This document shows positions 5,384 through 16,516 of a stretch of 64,000 nucleotides of DNA, piece after piece (positions within the stretch are counted from its first letter, which is position 1; each line of letters opens with the position of its first letter). Made by a program: the position numbers and the translations under genes. The notes beneath the pieces were generated by a model. The model was not told the DNA's origin and did not search any database. It worked only from the letters and a program-made list of their open reading frames with translations. The stretch lies in contig CALRHW010000001.1 in assembly GCA_943359555.1 (NCBI GenBank), forward strand, positions 2,718 to 66,717, written 5' to 3'. This stretch comes from Parcubacteria group bacterium. GTDB lineage: Bacteria; Patescibacteriota; Minisyncoccia; Phycocordibacterales; CALRHW01.

Positions 5384-6637
5384 TTATATTTTTGGAATTA
5401 TTTTTTGATTTGTGATTGGTGTCGTAGTAGAAATTATTTTTTCAGCTTCAACCGCGTTAAATAATCCATTTTTGTAAAGTGTAAACGCTACTCCATATTC
5501 TTTTACTTGAAACTGTGTATCTCCAGAATCAACAAATTTTACCGCTTCATCAAGAGTACTTGAAGCAATGGCAATAGAAGTTGTGGAAACTTCTATGTTT
5601 TTATCTATGCTCTGTTTTACTTTGTCAATTTTAGTGACCGCATCTTTTCTTTTGTCCTGAGCTGTAGCTTTTTTCATTTCATTATCGTCAAGTGTTGGAA
5701 TTTTTGCCTCCACTTCTTCACGCACTTGTGCTGTTGTGTTTATGTTTGCTTCAACAGAATCAAGGAGATTGCTCAGTTCTGTCTGACTATCTAATTTATT
5801 GTCCAACACCTTTTCGTTTGCCGTTTTTTCATCTAAGGGCGTAACTGTTTCTTTTACTAACACTACTTCTTCAATAGCAACGTCTGGTTTTATAAAACTA
5901 TTTGTAGAATCATCTGTTACAGAAATAACCGCCACATCTTTTTGCTCTGTGTCACTTTGAACAGATGCGACAGTGGTTTCGTTTTTCGTGCTGGGGCTAG
6001 GTGTCGCAACTATGACCGTCTTCAAACTTGCAGTCTCCGCTTTTTGCGTTCTATCTACTTTTGCAAGAGAAGCACTGTGTTCTTTTAAAGACTCTTCTAG
6101 ATTTTTACTTACATCTATCGCCATTTTTAAATCATTATTTGCTTCTATTCTAGCGATTTGCTGTTGAACACTTTTTACATGTTTATTAAAATTTTCTTGA
6201 ATTATGTTTTTTGACGTGGTATCAAGCTCGCCCCTTACTGCAAGTTTTTTGGCTTCGTCTAGTCGCTCACCCGCACGTGCAGTATCAAAATATGCTTTTG
6301 ACTGCGCACTAAAAACAAACCAAAAACGCATGTCTTCCGTAGCGAGTTTTATAGAATAAAGAGCATTGTTTGGAAGAGCCGTCTGTGCGAGCAAAGTCGT
6401 TCCTCCGCCGAAAGCGATAACGACAACAAGAGCAAAAGCCACCGCGCGTTGCGAATGAATAAAATATGGAGAAAAAATGGAGAGAAATCTTTGCTGTTGG
6501 GATTTTTGTGGGTGAGATTTTTGCACAGGATTTTCTTTCACATAAAAATCCACATTTTTCCAAATGTTTTGTTTTTCTTCGGTTGAAAGAAGGATTCCTT
6601 TTGCGGATTTTATTATTTTTTTAAATTCGTTATTCAT
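5384..6637 (-). CDS. single-pass membrane protein, putative anti-sigma factor (DUF5667-like by context)
   Basis: Located 17 nt downstream of the ECF sigma gene. It has a cytoplasmic N-terminal ~60 aa, one TM (AVAFALVVVIAFGGGTTLL) and a long coiled-coil/Thr-Ser-rich extracytoplasmic part. Confidence 0.45.
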   Translation of the reverse strand: MNNEFKKIIKSAKGILLSTEEKQNIWKNVDFYVKENPVQKSHPQKSQQQRFLSIFSPYFIHSQRAVAFALVVVIAFGGGTTLLAQTALPNNALYSIKLATEDMRFWFVFSAQSKAYFDTARAGERLDEAKKLAVRGELDTTSKNIIQENFNKHVKSVQQQIARIEANNDLKMAIDVSKNLEESLKEHSASLAKVDRTQKAETASLKTVIVATPSPSTKNETTVASVQSDTEQKDVAVISVTDDSTNSFIKPDVAIEEVVLVKETVTPLDEKTANEKVLDNKLDSQTELSNLLDSVEANINTTAQVREEVEAKIPTLDDNEMKKATAQDKRKDAVTKIDKVKQSIDKNIEVSTTSIAIASSTLDEAVKFVDSGDTQFQVKEYGVAFTLYKNGLFNAVEAEKIISTTTPITNQKIIPKI

Positions 6638-6654
6638 TTCAATTTTGTTTTTTC

Positions 6655-7173
6655 TCAGATGTTTTTCTCGCGGTCATGATATATTTCCTTTAGTTTTTCT
6701 ATCGCCCGATGAATCTTTACTGAAATATTATTTGCGGGTTCATCTAGGATTTCTGCAATTTCTTTAATACTTAATTCCTCCACATATTTCATAAATATTA
6801 GATCACGATACGCTTTTGGAATTTTATCTAAAAGCTTCATCGCTTCGGCGCCGTCTATTTGATTTTCCAAATCCCGTACTGTCGGGGTGTCGTGACTCGT
6901 ATCAAAACCTTCTTCAAAAAGCTCATCAAGCGAAACCGGCTTCTTTTTTCTATAATGATCAATGACGGTGTTGTGGGCTGTTCTATATAAAAAAGCCTTT
7001 ATATTGAGCACTTCTCCGCCCCCTTGAATGTATTGCCAAGTCTTTATAAAAGTGTCCTGAAGCATATCTTTTGCCTCGTCACGGTTTAGAGTCTTGAAAT
7101 AGCAATATCTAAAAAGCGCGTTGGTGTGCTCTTTGTATGCGTCTAAAAATTGTGCTTCTTTTTGATGATCCAT
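6655..7173 (-). CDS. ECF-subfamily RNA polymerase sigma-70 factor
   Basis: Region 2 (LFRYCYF..., FIKTWQYIQ) and region 4 (ELSIKEIAEILDEPANNISVKIHRAIEKLK) are both present. Length 172 aa. Confidence 0.85.
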   Translation of the reverse strand: MDHQKEAQFLDAYKEHTNALFRYCYFKTLNRDEAKDMLQDTFIKTWQYIQGGGEVLNIKAFLYRTAHNTVIDHYRKKKPVSLDELFEEGFDTSHDTPTVRDLENQIDGAEAMKLLDKIPKAYRDLIFMKYVEELSIKEIAEILDEPANNISVKIHRAIEKLKEIYHDREKNI

Positions 7174-7204
7174 AGTTATGACGTGAAAAAAGCCACGGCA
7201 TTAC

Positions 7205-7241
7205 AGGGTATTATACAACATATTCGTAAAAACTCGGCTAT
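7205..7241 (-). promoter_or_regulatory. candidate extended -10 promoter (TTGTATAAT on minus strand) upstream of the ECF sigma gene
   Basis: The reverse complement of 7210-7218 is TTGTATAAT, about 35 nt upstream of the sigma ATG. The -35 is poor. Confidence 0.25.
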
Positions 7242-7275
7242 TTTTTTGGTGGAAATGTAATGAGCGAGATTCCTG

Positions 7276-8226
7276 TTACACCTTAGTCAGAAATTCTTTT
7301 ATATCTTCTGCGGTCTTGAGAGGTAGGGTGATAAAGAAGGTCGTGCCTTTGTGTTCTTCGGATTCAAAGCGAATGGTGCCGTGGTGGGCTTCGATATATT
7401 TCTTGGACATATAGAGGCTAATACCGCTCCCGTTCACGAGCTTATTCCTCGCGTTGCTAGCGCGATAAAATTCTGAAAATATTTTGCTATGCTCACTCTG
7501 TGGAATGCCGATACCTGTATCACTGATCACAATGTTCAAAGTAGTCTCGTCATTATTGACTGTGAGCGAAAAAGACTTGTCCCCCTCCCCCGCATATTGA
7601 ATAGAATTCTCGAGCAGATTCTCTATCACGATGCGTATACGCATAATATCAACTTCCACTTCCTTGCCACTATCAAGGTGAATAGCGCTAGTAAACTGGA
7701 TTCCCTTCCTTTCGTAACCAAAGGTATACTTTTCAACGACTTCTTTAATGACGGCCTCCACCGCGCCGAGCCGCATCTTTTCACGATAAATTGAGAGTTT
7801 CTCTATCTCAAGAAGGCTAACATCAAGTAAATTGACCGAATGCAGCACAGTTTTTTGAGTGGAATATACCACACGGGAGAGTCTATCTTTGTCTTCTTGA
7901 CTAAAAGCAACACCATATTTTTGAAGCACAAAATCAATGACCCAGTTTGTAGAAGTGAGACCTGTGCGCATTTCATGAGCTATAAGAGATACGATTTCAT
8001 TCTTGAGCTTGGTATTGTGCTTGATGAGTTTGATTTTACTATACTCTCGAAAAGCAGCCGAGACAAGCATACCTAAGAGAGAAGCTATAATAAGAAAAAA
8101 AATATCTATCTCGTCATATCCTCTTGAGAGTATCGGTAAGTCAAAAGAGAGGGTGATGTATCCCACGGCAACACCACTGATACCTCCAAGTATATACGAA
8201 ATAATATTCTCAAAATATTCTGACAT
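7276..8226 (-). CDS. sensor histidine kinase (2 TM, HisKA + HATPase_c)
   Basis: The H-box is LIAHEMRTGLTS. The C-terminal region NGSGISLYMSKKYIEAHHGTIRFESEEHKGTTFFITLP matches G1/G2 boxes. Confidence 0.85.
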   Translation of the reverse strand: MSEYFENIISYILGGISGVAVGYITLSFDLPILSRGYDEIDIFFLIIASLLGMLVSAAFREYSKIKLIKHNTKLKNEIVSLIAHEMRTGLTSTNWVIDFVLQKYGVAFSQEDKDRLSRVVYSTQKTVLHSVNLLDVSLLEIEKLSIYREKMRLGAVEAVIKEVVEKYTFGYERKGIQFTSAIHLDSGKEVEVDIMRIRIVIENLLENSIQYAGEGDKSFSLTVNNDETTLNIVISDTGIGIPQSEHSKIFSEFYRASNARNKLVNGSGISLYMSKKYIEAHHGTIRFESEEHKGTTFFITLPLKTAEDIKEFLTKV

Positions 8227-8231
8227 CTAAT

Positions 8232-8909
8232 TTAGATTGTAGCGCTTGGTGCCTCGCGTTGCTTCTTGCGAGCATACATTAGAGTACTAATAATAATGAC
8301 AGGTGCCAGAAAACCAAAAATTGAACTTGTGATCATGGCCCCCGTAATCATGGCACCGTTGGCTATCACGCAACAAGTCACCACGCCCGAACCACCACCC
8401 AAGGCCTTTATCTTTTGCCACCTATTAGCTATGCCGATAGCTTTAAAGATAATGAATCCTCCTACGATGAGACCATTCACCACCAAGTCATACCACAAAG
8501 TAAAGTGCATGAGTTGCATTTCTCGCTCTTTTGTCTGGATGAACCAAATAAAGAGAGCGAGAACCATCATCAATACGACTCGAAACACCGTCTTTCGCGT
8601 TCTCTCGGATAGAGAGCTGAGCGGGAACTTGAGCATGTAAGCAGAACCGATGAATACCGCAAGACCTGCGATATTGCTATAGACCATGTTCATCGTGTGC
8701 ATCTCGAGCCCCATGAAAAACATGCTGATTGCTTGATATATTAAAAACGCAAAAAGCGCGCCGATAAGCTCATTCTTTTCTTGACGCATAGGCTTCCACA
8801 CATACGCCGCGCACAATAGATAAAAAACTCCAGCTGCCATCATCAAAAAAATTTCAAACATCATACCAAACACCATCGGTCCACTAGACTCCATCATCAT
8901 ATGTTCCAT
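8232..8909 (-). CDS. polytopic membrane protein (~6 TM), Met-rich, unknown function
   Basis: Hydrophobic segments throughout and an N-terminus MEHMMMESSGPMVFGMMFEIFLMM. It lies 5 nt upstream of the histidine kinase in the same orientation. Confidence 0.6.
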   Translation of the reverse strand: MEHMMMESSGPMVFGMMFEIFLMMAAGVFYLLCAAYVWKPMRQEKNELIGALFAFLIYQAISMFFMGLEMHTMNMVYSNIAGLAVFIGSAYMLKFPLSSLSERTRKTVFRVVLMMVLALFIWFIQTKEREMQLMHFTLWYDLVVNGLIVGGFIIFKAIGIANRWQKIKALGGGSGVVTCCVIANGAMITGAMITSSIFGFLAPVIIISTLMYARKKQREAPSATI

Positions 8910-9025
8910 ATAAAAATTATGTTAACTAATAAACGTAATAATAAAACTTATTTAAGTTTACCATGTATGTAAAAAACACAATACAATAGCAACAGTGGAT
9001 ATCCACATGCAAAAAGCGTAGATAC

Positions 9026-9457
9026 ATGCTAAAATATAGACAAGATATGAGCGAAAATACACACGTAGATTTTTTTAAAGACAAGAAAGTATTGATCGTT
9101 GAAGACGATGCCTTTTTAGGTGGAATCGTGGCTGAGTCTTTGCATAAAAATAAGGCAACGGTAAATCTAGTCACCTCCGCTGAAAATGCGATAGAATACT
9201 TAAAGAGCACTGTCCCCGATATTGTCGTGCTAGATATATTTTTGCCCGGAATGAATGGGTTCACTTTTCTGGAAGATTTTAGAAAGAATCCTTTGACTGC
9301 TAAAGTGCCTGTCCTTGTGCTTTCCAACTCTGGGCAAGCGGAAGATAGAGAGCGGGTAAAAAATCTAGGCGCAGACTTCATGGCAAAAGCCCTTGTGACG
9401 CCGAATGAAGCGATAGATCATCTGTATCAAATGCTCGTGAAGAGACAAATCCATTGA
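9026..9457 (+). CDS. stand-alone response-regulator receiver (CheY-like)
   Basis: KKVLIVEDD acidic pocket, phospho-acceptor Asp in IVVLDIFLPGMNG, and a conserved T/S and K. An alternative start exists at 9047. Confidence 0.8.
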   Translation: MLKYRQDMSENTHVDFFKDKKVLIVEDDAFLGGIVAESLHKNKATVNLVTSAENAIEYLKSTVPDIVVLDIFLPGMNGFTFLEDFRKNPLTAKVPVLVLSNSGQAEDRERVKNLGADFMAKALVTPNEAIDHLYQMLVKRQIH

Positions 9458-9507
9458 TTCTTTATCCTTAAATTAATTAAATACAAAACCCAGTAGATTC
9501 TCTCATA

Positions 9508-10596
9508 TTAAAAACCTATTTCCTCCAATTTTTTAAGATGCGGTTCAAGATCAGGGTGTTGCGGAATATATTCTCGCTCAATCATTTCTGCAACTCGCAT
9601 ACTTGGATTCTGCTTGTCCTCGTCGTGTTGGCGTTGCCAATCAGCGAGAATATCAGGATATTTTTCTTTTAGAATACCGAGCAAACGAATCATCAACGGC
9701 AAGGAAATTTTATATTTCTCTATCGCTTGAGCTTTTGCCTTTTCTTCATAATCAGGAGCTTTGTAATCAAGCGGTTCAAATTTCCTTGCCGTAAGAGCAG
9801 TTTTCAAACTGATAATGTCTTGAGGAAGTCCATATCTACTACCAGCATTTTTTAGGTGATAATCGAGAACAGAAAATCCTTGTTCTTTATCATACATAAA
9901 ATTGGAGGGCTTTGGGTCAATAACAAGTCCTTTGGCATCAAGTTCTCGAACCGTATCAATAAGTTGAATTATATTTTCGTCAGAATATTCTGGCGCTTCT
10001 TCTGGTGTAAAATTTGTTACATCAGTACCAGACAATAATTCCATAACGACAACGCCGTCCTCAAAGGAATAACTTACAAGTTGTGAAGTATGTGGAATAC
10101 CTTTTGCTCGAATCAACGGCTTTATTTCAAAATTCGCCTGTGTAATACTTCGAGAAAATTTGGCGGCATAAGTTTTCCCATCTACCTCAAGACGAAACGC
10201 AGATCCGTTACTTCCAGAGCCAAGATATTCAGGAAGTTCTTTGAAATTTCCTTGCGCTATTTTTGCTTTTAATTCTACTACTGCTGGTTGAAATTTCTCT
10301 TTATATGTTTTGATATTTTCTTCAATAAAAGAGGTTTCCAGTTTTCTTTCTTGGCGCAAGAAATTGACATAAGATTTTTTATGTTTTTGAATTAGAGAAA
10401 CAAGCTCCTCCGGTAAATCCGGTGGCAAATTGTTTAAGTCCTTTATTTGAGAAAGTTCCGCAGAATATTTTAATATTTGAGCTTGATCTTCGGAAAAGTT
10501 TTCTACACCTTTATCAGCAAAAATTTCCGCTTGCGCCTGCAAGCGTTCCTGTGATTTCTCTTCTGGATTAAATTGTGGTGCGCCTTCAAATTTCAT
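9508..10596 (-). CDS. eukaryotic-like protein kinase-fold protein (atypical Ser/Thr kinase-like)
   Basis: Gly-rich loop LGSGSNGSAF, AAK lysine (YAAKF), catalytic-loop-like IDPKPSNF (compare HRDLKPxN), and VLDY in place of DFG. Confidence 0.5.
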   Translation of the reverse strand: MKFEGAPQFNPEEKSQERLQAQAEIFADKGVENFSEDQAQILKYSAELSQIKDLNNLPPDLPEELVSLIQKHKKSYVNFLRQERKLETSFIEENIKTYKEKFQPAVVELKAKIAQGNFKELPEYLGSGSNGSAFRLEVDGKTYAAKFSRSITQANFEIKPLIRAKGIPHTSQLVSYSFEDGVVVMELLSGTDVTNFTPEEAPEYSDENIIQLIDTVRELDAKGLVIDPKPSNFMYDKEQGFSVLDYHLKNAGSRYGLPQDIISLKTALTARKFEPLDYKAPDYEEKAKAQAIEKYKISLPLMIRLLGILKEKYPDILADWQRQHDEDKQNPSMRVAEMIEREYIPQHPDLEPHLKKLEEIGF

Positions 10597-10627: not shown

Positions 10628-10703
10628 TGGTGGACCCTATCGGATTCGAACCGATGACCTCCTCATTGCAAATGAGGCGCTCTACCAACTAAGCTAAGGG
10701 CCC
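10628..10703 (-). tRNA. tRNA-Ala (anticodon TGC), CCA encoded
   Basis: The reverse complement folds as a cloverleaf: GGGCCCT acceptor with the G3:U70 Ala identity pair, anticodon loop TTTGCAA, and T-arm GGTTCGAATCC. Confidence 0.95.
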
Positions 10704-10825
10704 TTTAAAAACAACCGAATTCAATACTAACGCGGTTCATTATATGAAAAAAGCTTTATAAAATCAAGGTGACGTCAAATCAAAAAAGTTTGTAAAAGAG
10801 TAGGTGCGATTTTTAACAAAAGAAA

Positions 10826-11441: not shown

Positions 11442-12425
11442 CTATTTGTCCCTCATCGCAAGCGTCAGCACGTGATCTAAAAATTCATGAAAATCAATTC
11501 CGCCGACTTTTAGTGATTTTGGTATGAGCGACTCAGATGTAAGTCCTGGCAAGGTATTGGTTTCTAAAATATAAATTCCGTCTGGAGCGACAATAAAATC
11601 ACTCCGTGAATAATGTTTTAATCCGAGAGCTTTGTGTGCGCGAACAGAAAAATCTTGAAGTAACGCTGTTTCTTCTGGCGTAAAATTGCCCGGACATATT
11701 TCCTGTGATTTTCCGCTGTATTTTGCATCGTAATCAAAAAATTTATTTTCTTGTGGTTTTATAATCTCAATCGGCGAAAGCGTATACACTTCACCGCGAG
11801 TCTTTGCACTATCCACTACGCCACAAGTAGCTTCCCTTCCCGCGATAAATTCTTCTACTATTACAGAGTCGGCTAGCTCAAAAGCTTTGTCTACACCTTT
11901 TGTAAAATTATCCCAGTTATCTACGATAGAAACTCCGAGTGATGAACCACCAGTATTTGGTTTTACAACGAGCGGTTTTTTTAAATGAGAAAAAACTCCA
12001 AAAAGCCGTGAGTCGGATTTGTCGTCACGACGAATCACTTCGTGCTTTGCGATTTTTAGGCCTCCTTTTTTAAAAGCTTTTTTTGCAAGGTGCTTGTTCA
12101 TTCCGATCGCAGACGCGAGTGCACCAGAGCCAGTGTAAGGCACATTGAACGTGTCCAGTAGCTGTTGCACTTTTCCATCTTCACCAAAATCGCCATGAAG
12201 TGCGTTGAAAATCACGTCTACCTGCGCGAGAATTTTTTCTGGCGAGCGGGCGATGCCGTCAATGTGCCACACTCCCGCTCGGTCAATAAAAATATCTTTC
12301 GGTAAATATTTTTCTGACGATAAACTTTTCAGCACGTTGCTTCCAGTTTTTAGCGACACTTCGTATTCGCCAGAAGGTCCGCCACGCAGGACACCGACTT
12401 TTATTTTTGATTTTTGAGAGGTCAT
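11442..12425 (-). CDS. ddl: D-alanine--D-alanine ligase
   Basis: KVGVLRGGPSGEYEVSL N-terminus, and the ATP-grasp segments HGDFGEDGKVQQLL and PYTGSG. Confidence 0.9.
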   Translation of the reverse strand: MTSQKSKIKVGVLRGGPSGEYEVSLKTGSNVLKSLSSEKYLPKDIFIDRAGVWHIDGIARSPEKILAQVDVIFNALHGDFGEDGKVQQLLDTFNVPYTGSGALASAIGMNKHLAKKAFKKGGLKIAKHEVIRRDDKSDSRLFGVFSHLKKPLVVKPNTGGSSLGVSIVDNWDNFTKGVDKAFELADSVIVEEFIAGREATCGVVDSAKTRGEVYTLSPIEIIKPQENKFFDYDAKYSGKSQEICPGNFTPEETALLQDFSVRAHKALGLKHYSRSDFIVAPDGIYILETNTLPGLTSESLIPKSLKVGGIDFHEFLDHVLTLAMRDK

Positions 12426-12443
12426 GTGGAGTATTATAACAAA

Positions 12444-12550
12444 CTTTATAAAACATTGTTTGAAAAGACTCGCGCAGGCGCGACGGCGCCGAGCGGAGCA
12501 GAAATCGTAGCAACGATTTACGCGTGCTTTTCAGACGATGTTTTATAAAG
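12444..12550. repeat. intergenic element: 24-bp imperfect inverted repeat arms flanking a GC-rich core that carries a 39-nt motif also found at 38521-38559
   Basis: Left arm CTTTATAAAACATTGTTTGAAAAG (12444-12467). Right arm CTTTTCAGACGATGTTTTATAAAG (12527-12550). Motif copy at 12490-12528. Confidence 0.6.
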
Positions 12551-12554
12551 TTTA

Positions 12555-13841
12555 TTAGCGTATCTTCCTTTGTAGTTTTCTATGAAAACCTATCGCGAAA
12601 CGATGAGATTCGCTGTTCCCGAGTAAAATGGCACGAGAATGTTTTTGGATGATCTGCTTGTCGCCAAGTATCTCGCGAGCTTTGTGTTTATCATCTTTTA
12701 CCACCGAAACAACCTCTATTTTTAGGCTTTTTTTGTTTAAAACTGCATTTGCTACATTGATTTGAGCTTTTGCACCGTCTACGACTATAAGGCTCGGCAA
12801 GGGCCATTCTGCGTGTGTAAGTCGGCGTGACAAAATTTCTTTCAGCGCGGCAACATCATTTATTCCCGGGTTTATTTTTATTTTAAACTTTCTATATTGG
12901 CTTTGTGCTACCTCTCCGTCTTCTATCACGGTCATCACTCCCACGACATTTGTTCCAGCTAAGTGTGCGACGTCGTATGCTTCTATGCGGAAACTTTTTG
13001 TATTTTCTGTGACGCTAGAAATTTCTCCACCAAAAGAACTCATCTCATTTTTATCTGCCGTGCCATGTTTTAAAAGTGCAATATCTTGAATATGATTTAA
13101 AGCAAAAATTGTTCTTTTTACTTCCCCCGCTTTTTCAAATTTTTTCTCGTGCGCGAAACCCTTCATTTGTTTTTCAAGGTTTCGCAAAACTGCACGTTTT
13201 TTTCCTTCAAAAAATAAGCGGAGATTTTTTATTGTTTCACCATATTCTTTTTTTGTCACAGCACCTACGCACACTCCAGAACAAAGTCCTATTTGATAAT
13301 TAAAACAAGCGCGCGGAAGTTTCCCTTTTTTCATTTGCACTTCGCTTGGCGTGCATTTTTTGTCACTGTAAGGAAAAATCTTGCGAATAATCCTCATTGC
13401 CTCTTTAAGCTGTGTCCCGTGCGGAAACGGCCCAAACATAAACTTTATTAGATCTTTAGGGAAAATTGATGAGAGACTTCTACCGCGCACGACTACTATT
13501 TTAGGAAAATCTTCTTTCGTAAAAATTACATAATTAAAACTTTTATTATCTTTTTCTTTTGAATTGTAAGGCGGGTTTAATTTTTTGATTAAATTTGCTT
13601 CAAGAATAAGTGCTTCAAGTACAGAGTCCGTCTGTGTAAAATCCACCTTCTCAAACTCTTGCAACATTTTTAAAATAAGCGGACTTCTGGTATGTGCAAT
13701 GTCCGTAGAAAAATAACTCCGCACTCTATCGCGTAGCGAAGTCGCTTTCCCTACATACAAGACACGACCGCGAGGACCTTTAAAAAAATATACTCCCGGC
13801 GTTTCTGGTAATTTTGATAAAAATTTTTGAGGCGTTTTCAT
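12555..13841 (-). CDS. uvrC: excinuclease ABC subunit C, short form lacking C-terminal (HhH)2
   Basis: GIY-YIG N-terminus GVYFFKGPRGRVLYVGKATSLRDRV. Central UvrB-interacting region and an RNase H-like 5'-incision region. Ends IVVDGAKAQ.... Length 428 aa. Confidence 0.8.
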   Translation of the reverse strand: MKTPQKFLSKLPETPGVYFFKGPRGRVLYVGKATSLRDRVRSYFSTDIAHTRSPLILKMLQEFEKVDFTQTDSVLEALILEANLIKKLNPPYNSKEKDNKSFNYVIFTKEDFPKIVVVRGRSLSSIFPKDLIKFMFGPFPHGTQLKEAMRIIRKIFPYSDKKCTPSEVQMKKGKLPRACFNYQIGLCSGVCVGAVTKKEYGETIKNLRLFFEGKKRAVLRNLEKQMKGFAHEKKFEKAGEVKRTIFALNHIQDIALLKHGTADKNEMSSFGGEISSVTENTKSFRIEAYDVAHLAGTNVVGVMTVIEDGEVAQSQYRKFKIKINPGINDVAALKEILSRRLTHAEWPLPSLIVVDGAKAQINVANAVLNKKSLKIEVVSVVKDDKHKAREILGDKQIIQKHSRAILLGNSESHRFAIGFHRKLQRKIR

Positions 13842-16516
13842 TAACCTTTCTTTAGAGCTTTTTTAAGATACACACCTGTGTGTGATTTTGGATTATTTGC
13901 TATTTCTTCTGGAGTACCTTTTGCTACTATTTGACCACCACCAAGTCCACCGTTTGGACCGATATCTATTACAAAATCAGAGCTTTTCACAATATCAATG
14001 TTGTGTTCAATGACCATCACAGTATTGCCTTTATCCACAAGTCTTTGCAAAATCTCTATGAGTTTTTTCACATCTTCATAATGTAGACCGATGGTTGGCT
14101 CGTCTAAAAGATAAATTGTTTTTTGAATATGAGGGCGATAAAGCTCTGAAGAAATTTTTACACGCTGAGCCTCGCCACCAGAAAGTGTTGTCGCCGACTG
14201 CCCGAGAGCTAAATATCCCAGCCCTACTTCAGACATAGTTTTCAACCGATCGTAAATCGCAGGAATATCTTCAAAAAATTCAAGGGCTTCTTCTACGGTC
14301 ATTTTTAGGATTTCGTAAATATTTTTCTTTTTGTATTTTATTTCAAGCGTTTCTTTTGTAAAACGTTTTCCAAAACAAATATCACACGGCACATAAACTG
14401 TCGGCAAAAAATGCATTTCCACTTCTATTACACCATTTCCCTGACATGTTTCGCATCGCCCACCTTTCACATTGAAAGAAAATCTATTTGCTTTCCAACC
14501 ACGCACACGCGCTTCTGCAGTCTCTGCAAAAAGCTCGCGGATAAAAGTAAATGAGCCAGTATAAGTCGCTGGATTTGAACGTGGAGTGCGACCGATGGCG
14601 CTTTGATCAATAAGTATAGAACGACCTAAATATTCTGTGCCAGAAAAAGAGCCGCAATTATAAACATCTGCGGAACGATAACGTCTATCAAAACGCGCTT
14701 GCAGATTTTTATGCACGATTTCATACATAAAAGTCGATTTTCCTGAACCTGAAACTCCTGTCACTGCGACAAGCACACCTAGCGGTATGTCTATATTTAA
14801 ATTTTTTATATTAAATATTTTTCCTCCACGGATTTTGAGCTCGCCTTTTGGAGAATCGCGACGTTTATCTGGTGTAGCGATAACTTTATCGCCACGCAAA
14901 TAATCAAGCGTCACAGAACCAGAAATATTTTTTTTCGCAGTGAGTAAATCTTCAAGATATCCAGACACTACAATTTCCCCGCCGTGCACTCCCGCACCCG
15001 GACCAATATCCACAATATAATCAGAAGAATAAATAGTGTCTTCATCGTGCTCCACCACAATAATAGTGTTGCCTAAATCGCGTAGATGAAGAAGGGTTTT
15101 TATGAGGCGGTCATTGTCGCGTGGATGCAAACCGATAGTCGGCTCATCAAGCACATAAAGTGCACCGACTAGACCAGACCCAAGCTGAGAAGCTAGACGA
15201 ATACGCTGAGCCTCGCCACCAGAAAGAGTGTGCGCACGGCGACTCAAAGTGAGATATTCAATACCCACATTTATCATAAATTGTAAACGCGCCTCTATTT
15301 CTTTTATCACCACTTTTGAAATATTTTTTTCGCGAGCGGTGAGTTTTACTTTATTGAAAAATTCATTAGCGTCGGCGATTGAAAGTGAGGTAAAATCCAC
15401 GATACTTTTTCCGCCGATAAAAACGTGTAGAGATTCTTCACGAAGTCGTGCGCCGTTACACTTTGGACAAGGTTCTGTACCAAAAAAATGCCGTGTGCCG
15501 AGTCCGTTACATTCTGGACAAGCGCCGTAAGGAGAGTTGAAAGAAAAAAGCCGTGGCTCTATTTCTGGATATGAATAACCATCTTTTGGACAAGCAAATT
15601 TTGAAGACATTAAAAATTCTTCGCGGTCGGTATTTTTTGGGTCTTCTTTTAATGGCTCTTTTTTCGCCATATCTCTAAAGACGATTTTTACTAGACCGTC
15701 GGATTCTTCAAGCGCCTTTTCAAGAGACTCACTAAGGCGTTCAAGTGCGTCTTTTGGATTATCTCTAAAATCCAAAACATTTATTTGATCTACCATTACG
15801 TCAATGTTGTGTTTTTTGGTTTTTGTGAGAATGATTTGGTCGCGAAGTTTTTTACGAACGCCGTCCACAAGCACCTCAGAATATCCTTTGCCGAGTAAAT
15901 CATATAGAAGCTGATAATATTCGCCCTTTCTTCCACGCACCAGCGGAGAAAAAATCTCTGCATAAACAGGAAGACCAAGCTTTTTGTCGCCAGTTTCTTT
16001 GTTTTCTTTTGCAAGCTCGTTTTGTTTCGTCTCAATTTTTTCTAAAATAAAATTTTTTATCTCTTCATTTGAAAGACGCTTGATTTCACTACCACACACG
16101 AGACAGTGTGGCTGACCAATACGAGAATATAAAATTCGCAAATAATCATAGATTTCTGTAATTGTTGCAACAGTAGAGCGCGGATTGGAAGAGCGGGATT
16201 TTTGGTCAATAGAAATTGCAGGTGAAAGTCCGACGATTTCGTCTACGTCTGGCTTTTGCATTTGTCGCAAAAATTGTCGTGCATAAGAAGAGAGCGACTC
16301 CACATATCGTCGCTGACCCTCGGCAAAAATAGTATCAAAAGCGAGCGACGATTTTCCTGAACCAGACAAGCCAGTAAAAACCGTCATTGTGTTGCGCGGG
16401 ATTTCTACCGTAACGTCTTTTAAATTGTGGGTTCGCGCTCCACGCACGATTATCAAATCTTTTTTGTTTTTCTCTTTTGGCTCCATATATAGGTTTATAG
16501 CCCAAGGACAAGCCAC
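13841..16516 (-). CDS. uvrA: excinuclease ABC subunit A
   Basis: Two ABC ATPase modules ([14 protein letters not shown]; [13 protein letters not shown]) and Zn-finger Cys pairs. Overlaps the uvrC start by 1 nt. Confidence 0.95.

Follow-up and report, generated by a model that had tools for sequence, protein, structure and literature searches.

Several described groups of protein kinase-like (PKL) enzymes come close to the gene considered here, a 362-residue open reading frame (ORF) on the minus strand of a 64,000-nucleotide stretch of contig CALRHW010000001.1 from a Parcubacteria group bacterium (this whole stretch is called the window). Hanks-type bacterial kinases (PknB 1MRU, PknE, and YabT; PF00069) are one such group; unlike them, the window protein has no sensor or transmembrane region. 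The RIO kinases (A. fulgidus Rio2 1TQI/1ZAR, Rio1 1ZP9, and human RIOK1 4OTP) are core ribosome-biogenesis factors of archaea and eukaryotes and carry an N-terminal winged helix, whereas the window gene is a patchy bacterial accessory gene whose product has a different helical N-terminal domain. Identity to the RIO kinases is only 14-16%, there is no Pfam RIO1 match (PF01163), and RIO-type motifs are absent (the window loops read GSGSNGSAF, IDPKPSN, and LDYH). In UbiB/ABC1 proteins (PF03109; COQ8 and E. coli UbiB) an N-terminal extension carries a KxGQ motif and an Ala-rich loop replaces the Gly-rich loop. The window protein has its best Pfam similarity to this group, resembles it in the catalytic loop D-P-x-P-x-N and in a helical N-terminal extension with invariant Lys and Gln, and has a few relatives that precomputed annotation flags as PF03109. 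Its loop is, however, the Gly-rich G-S-G-S-N-G, and its N-terminal motif is K-x5-Q-A-Q-x-E rather than KxGQ. The minimal effector kinases NleH1 (4LRJ) and OspG (4Q5H) have no sequence relationship to the window protein and differ in their flanking domains, and unlike them it has no secretion signal or type III context. Aminoglycoside (APH) and macrolide phosphotransferases and the choline-kinase group (PF01636) are likewise soluble, stand-alone PKL enzymes of ~300-360 residues with helical C-terminal subdomains that spread as single genes; the window protein shows neither an APH profile match nor the HxDxxxxN catalytic motif. We argue that the gene probably encodes an active, atypical PKL kinase of an unclassified family, which has no partner in its local gene island and seems to be exchanged among genomes of the candidate phyla radiation (CPR) as a unit of about the size of the ORF.

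The fold was predicted from A1, an alignment of 27 diverse family members that are colinear over their full length with a mean column identity of 56%. The resulting AlphaFold2 model has a predicted local distance difference test score (pLDDT) of 90.5 and a predicted template modeling score (pTM) of 0.86. N-terminal helices (residues 16-114) lead into N-lobe strands (124-148), helix alphaC (151-163), and a hinge strand (182-186). The C-lobe comprises a helix (206-221), the catalytic and metal-binding strands (224-248), and helices at 257-359. This is the bilobal kinase fold of a PKL member, with a five-stranded N-lobe including alphaC and a helical C-lobe. The gene and the parts of its product lie in the window as follows:

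9508..10596 (-), kinase-like ORF of 362 residues with an ATG start, read as a stand-alone atypical PKL enzyme of an unclassified family
10252..10563 (-), family-specific, all-helical N-terminal domain, residues 12-115, with predicted helices 16-29, 36-48, 63-82, and 89-114
10513..10557 (-), N-terminal motif K14-x5-Q20-A-Q22-x-E24-x3-D28 (KSQERLQAQAEIFAD), invariant in A1
10195..10224 (-), Gly-rich ATP-binding loop LGSGSNGSAF (GxGxxG plus the family-specific Asn130)
10156..10170 (-), beta3 strand YAAKF, in which Lys146 is the VAIK equivalent
10120..10143 (-), alphaC motif TQANFEIK with Glu157; Q153, N155, E157, and K159 are invariant in A1
9898..9927 (-), catalytic loop LVIDPKPSNF with Asp227, Lys229, and Asn232; D-x-K-x-x-N, without the His and Arg of HRD
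9853..9870 (-), metal-binding segment VLDYHL, in which Asp245 corresponds to the Asp of DFG, not followed by an activation loop
9520..9828 (-), C-terminal helical region, residues 257-359, with predicted helices 257-269, 283-312, 314-328, and 351-359

The first-pass annotation of this DNA had described a divergent protein of the kinase fold, extended by helical regions at both termini and lacking a transmembrane segment or signal peptide. This description is borne out: the five kinase motifs that it quoted are all present in the order given and map to the coordinates above, and neither a transmembrane segment nor a signal peptide was found in the acidic, hydrophilic protein (pI 5.2; maximum 19-residue hydropathy 1.09). 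Single-sequence searches gave matches that are below threshold yet in the same register (Pfam ABC1, E = 0.011; NCBIfam PrkT, 0.0019; PDB DAPK3, 0.14). The family profile searched against PDB sequences reached E = 0.004 for JNK1, with JNK and DAPK3 entries at ~0.004-0.01. Rio2 was the best match in the structure search, in which Rio1 and RIOK1 also ranked high and NleH1 and OspG were matched, with alignments that span only ~140-220 of the 362 residues. A viral structure library returned ordinary viral kinases. In these profile and structure comparisons, which had been suggested at the outset, no non-kinase family claims the protein.

The close clade and roughly half of the distant relatives retain the N-terminal domain. 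Each position of its motif is conserved in 113-117 of the 116-117 close relatives in which the residue could be aligned. Searched alone against the PDB, the domain gave no credible homolog; a match to 6h9l_A (E = 0.0013) reflects a biased coiled-coil repeat and not homology. A terminator-like hairpin at 10545-10528 (a perfect 7-bp stem and a T-run within the RLQAQA codons) was also considered and set aside as probably incidental, as synonymous changes destroy it in relatives. Because the codons vary synonymously, selection acts on the motif peptide rather than on a local RNA hairpin. Other features particular to the family are the alphaC motif TQxNFExK, the catalytic loop I-D-P-K-P-S-N-F, and the segment G-F-S-x-L-D-[YF]-H.

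Relatives number 166 at the 90% cluster level and 502 representatives at the 50% level. Those at the 90% level come from Vogelbacteria, Peregrinibacteria, and other Patescibacteria and are all annotated as "hypothetical protein", except for one "predicted Ser/Thr protein kinase". The kinase protein passes no Pfam or NCBIfam threshold. When 27 members were scanned against Pfam, 24 matched ABC1 (best E = 2.5e-6), 21 FTA2, 10 Pkinase, and three APH, and none matched the RIO1, Kdo, or choline kinase models. Neither Hanks-type membership, an option raised by the first-pass annotation, nor RIO, UbiB, or APH membership held up, the latter three being unmatched or below threshold. The query has no Pkinase match at E ≤ 1, and even the best members miss the 31.7-bit cut-off (e.g., P0238 at 19.9 bits; best member E = 7.3e-5). 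The protein has V-I-D for HRD and L-D-Y-H for DFG, and lacks an APE motif, an activation loop, and the alphaF-I substrate lobe; what it does have is a loop of the Ser/Thr type, D227-P-K229-P-S-N232. UbiB/ABC1 membership was rejected on a score of 15.3 bits against a threshold of 22.9, confined to profile positions 142-211 of 244 (hinge to DFG), and on a probability of 1.6% in an hhalign comparison of A1 with the genuine E. coli UbiB. The nearest groups are thus RIO and minimal protein kinases in structure, and ABC1 and Pkinase in the sequence of the catalytic loop. We read the protein as representing a new family within the PKL superfamily that belongs to no curated family. We found no description of it in the literature; a 2026 preprint on the oral microbiome reports 15 new PKL families, and the parts of it that were searched name neither Saccharibacteria nor Patescibacteria.

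Several relatives carry the kinase module fused to large extra regions (P0121, 607 residues; P0126, 722; P0145, 542; P0157, 598; P0160, 1052). The extra regions of P0160, P0157, P0121, and P0126 have no Pfam match. The C-terminal half of P0121 contains a second stretch resembling a Gly-rich loop (GQGGSKIAF), and the C-terminus of P0160 (YRG...SASWS) may resemble ADP-ribosyltransferase motifs. Two relatives on contigs labeled Pacearchaeota (L023) and Methanosarcinales (L024) are 89% identical to each other and 39 and 37% identical to the query, and lie in unrelated contexts. Their neighbors (HIT, metallophosphoesterase, peptidase U32, and DUF1861 genes) include no archaeal markers and lend no support to the archaeal labels.

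Conservation of the catalytic residues was counted in 254 family members aligned to the A1 profile, i.e., 120 close relatives and 134 distant representatives. This is the ortholog comparison that the first-pass annotation had called for, and both residues it singled out are retained: the catalytic Asp227 is D in 251 of the 254 relatives and E in the other three, and the beta3 Lys146 is K in 120/120 close relatives. Asn232 and Asp245 are each kept in 254/254 and Gly128 in 248/254, while Asn130 is kept in 117/120 of the close clade and Lys229 in 117/120 close and 85/134 distant relatives. G128, K146, E157, D227, N232, and D245, the residues expected of a PKL member, are invariant in A1. The "LDY" segment retains the metal-binding Asp and is missing only the Phe-Gly of DFG, and only ~10 residues separate D245 from the next helix (257).

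The second line of evidence concerns how the gene is distributed. The window is 82-92% identical in nucleotide sequence to six other loci (L006, L009, L010, L038, L052, and L054), and in each case the similarity begins 3-14 nt before the ATG and stops within ~8 nt past the stop codon. The 92% identity of L038, for example, is limited to the ORF together with 3 nt ahead of the ATG and 8 nt beyond the stop. Across 300 pairs of loci within the clade, similarity stops within ~10 nt of the ORF ends except between redundant copies, between L039 and L036, which have a tRNA in common, and between L038 and the L006 group, where it runs on for 50 nt. The GC content of the ORF is 33-38% throughout the close clade, against 30-52% in the host flanks (37% versus 52% in L002; 38% versus 49% in L039). 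The kinase is 73-80% identical between genomes whose other shared proteins are 38-47% identical, and it is 60% identical to a Magasanikbacteria ortholog, compared with 55% for UvrA and 36% for UvrC. A motif-based scan found the kinase in 22/185,579 species representatives, a count that required an exact motif match and is thus too low. There is no paralog within the 64-kb window.

Allele differences within the species are also confined to the ORF. Near-clonal strains differ from the window at 0-13 positions per 4000 nt in the flanks and, in four contigs, at 36-41 positions per 1089 nt in the ORF, where 0.58 would be expected at the background rate (P = 3e-60). Two other contigs of the species carry the window allele. 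The differences are mostly synonymous (pN/pS, the ratio of nonsynonymous to synonymous polymorphism, is 0.23 among strains and 0.09 for L038), a mark of purifying selection. Several of the strain differences are common with the L038 allele, which suggests mosaic alleles. Five or six of the twelve same-species contigs end inside or at the kinase gene, as expected where alleles coexist.

A few loci retain what may be traces of insertion. The ORF of L009 lies between two exact copies of a 23-nt sequence, which delimit a unit of 1116 bp. The first copy is made up of the last 17 nt of a tRNA-Leu, then CATA, then the A and T of the start codon, and the second lies 6 nt past the stop codon; removal of the insert gives the predicted empty-site sequence GAGTTCGATTCTCTCCTCCGGCACATATATTTTATA. 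Shorter bracketing repeats occur in L061 (16 nt), L004/L005 (15 nt), and L059/L015 (12 nt). Bracketing repeats of at least 13 nt were found in 3/38 kinase loci versus 0/105 neighboring control ORFs (p = 0.018). Another junction is seen between L006 and L007, which encode the same kinase (P0007). Their sequences are 100% identical beginning at position 5674, which lies within the last four bases of tRNA-Ser(gct) (5590-5677). Upstream of 5674 the two are unrelated: L006 has the tRNA and copper/redox genes, and L007, which lacks a tRNA, has LysM, a 1062-residue protein, and Amidase_2 (phage-lysis-like). At these loci, too, the tRNA 3′ end is a recombination or assembly junction.

What recurs in the surroundings is a tRNA gene. 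With redundant copies merged into distinct loci and the close clade defined as at least 66% identity to the query, a tRNA gene lies within 330 nt upstream on the same strand in 13/22 close-clade loci versus 1/31 distant loci (Fisher p = 6.5e-6). The tRNA-Ala gene that the first-pass annotation had named beside the kinase is thus the meaningful part of the context. Eight tRNA species are involved (Ser-gct, Ser-gga, Ser-cga, Ser-tga, Leu-caa, Ala-tgc, Asn-gtt, and Arg-ccg), and counting conservatively only one event per species still gives P ≤ 4e-4 under a generous gene-neighbor null. In the window, the following lie upstream of the kinase:

10628..10703 (-), tRNA-Ala(tgc), 31 nt 5′ of the kinase ATG (ARAGORN; Rfam 73.8 bits)
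10739..10767 (-), sigma70-like promoter match TTGATT-17-TATAAT, 10/12, a consensus match only, ~35 nt upstream of the tRNA-Ala

The only strong promoter-like site at the locus is this one, and a consensus scan found no terminator-like site between the tRNA-Ala and the kinase ATG. In loci without an adjacent tRNA (L038 and L054), the ORF follows a co-directional gene by 8-10 nt. Together, the placement of the promoter, the missing terminator, and these short gaps suggest that the kinase gene has no promoter of its own. In L036 (5689-5776, minus strand) and L039 (1316-1405, plus strand), ARAGORN called a "tRNA-Ser(act)" with an unusual anticodon beside the genuine tRNA-Ser(gct) just upstream of the kinase; they could be decayed copies of a tRNA or relics of past recombination at the site.

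In the explanation that we favor, a minimal kinase core (residues ~118-250) would bind ATP and Mg and transfer phosphate. It would not need activating phosphorylation, because there is neither an HRD Arg nor an activation loop. The helical N-terminal domain (K..QAQ.E...D) and the C-terminal bundle would replace the substrate-docking lobe and presumably form a substrate or regulatory site. The D-x-K-x-x-N catalytic loop is of the Ser/Thr-kinase type, and the preferred substrate would for this reason be the hydroxyl of a protein or peptide, phosphorylated in trans. The accessory gene would move horizontally among CPR genomes as a unit of about ORF size without its own promoter, and would probably be transcribed from the promoter of an upstream tRNA (here tRNA-Ala) or of a co-directional gene.

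A number of observations weigh against parts of this explanation. The beta3 residue of the 134 distant representatives is Lys in 71 and Arg in 58, and some of the wider family may therefore act in another way than the window protein; nor is Lys229 universal among the distant relatives. The substrate class is drawn from one residue of the catalytic loop. At the window locus there is no att-like repeat, and no empty site among the same-species strains, all of which are occupied. A tRNA 3′ repeat is absent from 12 other tRNA-linked loci and present only in L009. No integrase or conserved terminal sequence accompanies the ORF. For the closest alleles, relocation within a lineage and transfer between lineages both fit the 64 kb of genome at hand. 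Some of the tRNA-Ser linkages are inherited and not independent (L002, L006, and L036 share an upstream RecG). Finally, consensus scans are the sole basis for the likely co-transcription of the tRNA-Ala and the kinase gene. As to the Arg-beta3 subfamily itself (e.g., P0206, P0254, and P0261, with ..YAVRL..), its members retain D227, N232, and D245, and the substitution may mean altered nucleotide handling or inactivity. Some of these members look high-GC in origin, which would place the wider family beyond the CPR.

The genes next to the kinase are regulatory, and comprise the following:

9026..9457 (+), CheY-like receiver gene, convergent on the kinase 3′ end
8232..8909 (-), multi-pass membrane protein of 225 residues, in the same operon as the histidine kinase
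7276..8226 (-), histidine kinase of 316 residues with HATPase_c and a visible H-box, SLIAHEMRTG
6655..7173, extracytoplasmic function (ECF) sigma factor
5384..6637 (-), DUF5667 protein

The first-pass annotation had called the receiver an orphan and had assigned the kinase to a regulatory island at 5384-10596. The receiver is no orphan: it is divergent from the operon of the membrane protein and the histidine kinase, across a gap of 116 bp, and is likely the cognate partner of that histidine kinase. The island assignment does not survive comparison either, as no neighbor family recurs across ~60 related loci. All-against-all clustering of the neighbors in 31 loci found no family in more than three loci except the kinase itself. 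Apart from the same-species contigs, just three loci have a receiver in their flanks, namely L022 (at a distance of ~4 kb), L027, and L036, and the island is shared only by contigs of the same species. Its link to the kinase is coincidental. The C-terminal half of the DUF5667 protein (5384-5900) is a second strain-variable spot, with 116 differences per ~400 nt versus L033 (protein 85% identical), and the 3 kb between it and the kinase are nearly identical to L033. The variable part may be a surface-exposed, anti-sigma-like region under diversifying selection. Genes for uvrA-uvrC lie near the kinase on the same strand both in the window (11442-16516, 2-6 kb upstream) and in a Magasanikbacteria metagenome-assembled genome (L014/L055/L056, 0.7 kb downstream; 6779-10678 in L014). 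The arrangement may be a faint trace of synteny or may have arisen by chance (~4%, a rough estimate). In an Altimarinota chromosome (OZ246423.1; L001/L018, 1476-8735), a kinase relative lies between two RVT_1 genes (666 and 442 residues), with a helix-turn-helix gene on one side and genes for a 407-residue Macro-domain protein and a 1461-residue protein on the other, which looks like a retroelement or defense region.

Other functions would account for part of this evidence. The enzyme could be a small-molecule kinase acting on an antibiotic, xenobiotic, or metabolite, as aminoglycoside and macrolide phosphotransferases do, with the C-terminal bundle and N-terminal domain forming a ligand pocket. 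A single self-sufficient resistance or salvage determinant would be expected to spread in this way, and the stand-alone gene with no conserved partner, the exchange of an ORF-sized unit, the discordant GC content, and the patchy distribution all suit it. So do the helical extra domains in place of an activation loop and peptide-docking lobe, and the weak APH matches. We consider this possible, if on balance unlikely. A single-gene conflict or defense kinase, i.e., an anti-phage abortive infection protein or effector kept polymorphic by frequency-dependent selection, would explain the coexistence of no fewer than two or three alleles among near-clonal strains and the breaks of assemblies at the gene. 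It would also fit the other strain-variable spot nearby in the DUF5667 gene, the reverse transcriptase, Macro, Fic, XRE, and Y1-transposase genes that adjoin some relatives, the effector kinases NleH1 and OspG among the structural matches, and weak PADLOC matches of two members to the PD-T4-6 and mad6 defense kinases. However, those PADLOC matches go no further than generic similarity to kinases and do not extend to the window protein, no link to phages was seen (no PHROG family and no relative in IMG/VR), the substitutions are purifying and not diversifying, and many contexts are plain housekeeping genes, so that we regard a defense role as rather improbable.

An ATPase or conformational switch comparable to RIO, Bud32, or UbiB, in which ATP hydrolysis or autophosphorylation controls binding to a macromolecular partner, for example the ribosome or the tRNA machinery, is suggested by the rank of Rio2, Rio1, and RIOK1 in the structure search, by ABC1/UbiB as the best Pfam similarity, and by the minimal core without an activation loop. 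Conservation at least equal to that of UvrA would suit a conserved partner, and the linkage to tRNA genes could hint at a role in translation. The missing RIO1 match and RIO-type loops and the low UbiB probability speak against it, and a patchy, exchanged accessory gene is unlike a core ribosome or tRNA factor. Linkage to eight kinds of tRNA also fits a positional better than a functional effect, and we find this account distinctly doubtful. A Hanks-type Ser/Thr kinase of the local island, in cross-talk with the receiver, histidine kinase, and ECF sigma factor, would be in keeping with the adjacency of these genes and DUF5667 in the window and all same-species strains, and with a receiver/histidine kinase pair ~2 kb away in L036. 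Yet the neighborhood is not conserved outside the species, the gene is convergent with the receiver and so not co-transcribed with it, and the protein has no sensor, transmembrane, PASTA, or FHA module, a Pkinase score below threshold, and no activation loop. The kinase allele, moreover, changes while the island stays identical, and we think such a role highly improbable. The first-pass annotation had also raised a pseudokinase, on the change from DFG to LDY; such a scaffold would bind without phosphate transfer. The protein has no HRD and no DFG Gly, and the beta3 Lys-to-Arg change, which inactivates classical kinases, is found in the distant representatives counted above. Against this, the window protein and its whole close clade keep K146, E157, D227, N232, D245, and the GxGxxG loop without change, and because such retention would be unexpected without catalysis, we give the scaffold next to no credence. 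On these residues, the window protein is not a pseudokinase. An active, atypical kinase in a mobile ORF-sized unit remains our preferred explanation.

This gene adds to the PKL superfamily a well-defined family that looks catalytically intact, comprises ~500 clusters at 50% identity, is covered by neither Pfam nor NCBIfam models, and has an N-terminal motif of its own. Almost no signaling enzymes have been characterized in the CPR/Patescibacteria. The fold assignment alone is of modest interest, since new PKL families are still reported regularly. More unusual is a gene that is conserved at least as well as UvrA yet patchy, bounded in its homology by the ORF, dimorphic in clonal backgrounds, with alleles ~4% apart in otherwise identical strains, and found preferentially on the 3′ side of tRNA genes. 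A dedicated mechanism, if one lies behind this pattern, would give organisms that have tiny genomes and few recognized mobile elements a new way of exchanging genes, and the 3′ flanks of tRNA genes would be a handle for finding other such cargo. If only selection for expression is at work, the gene shows how promoterless acquired genes become established.

More speculatively, the gene could be a promoterless single-gene cassette of ~1.1 kb, with the coding sequence as its borders, that inserts 3′ of tRNA genes and has whole alleles swapped, which would make it a new minimal mobile unit in the CPR. Its favored sites would be class II tRNA-Ser and tRNA-Leu genes, from whose promoters it would be read, and the kinase would be either cargo or the agent itself, in conflict or in a tRNA-linked process. 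We put this forward as an outside possibility. In comparison with known systems, integron cassettes differ in that no conserved non-coding sequence follows the stop codon of the kinase in the 300 locus pairs (no specific search for attC secondary structure was made); they are alike in consisting of a single ORF that seemingly relies on an external promoter. Islands that integrate at tRNA genes differ in that no integrase goes with the kinase ORF, that the window locus has no tRNA repeat at the far border, and that the unit here is only ~1.1 kb. Like them, the kinase gene lies on the 3′ side of a tRNA in the 13 tRNA-linked loci of the close clade, and in L009 a repeat brackets the insert.

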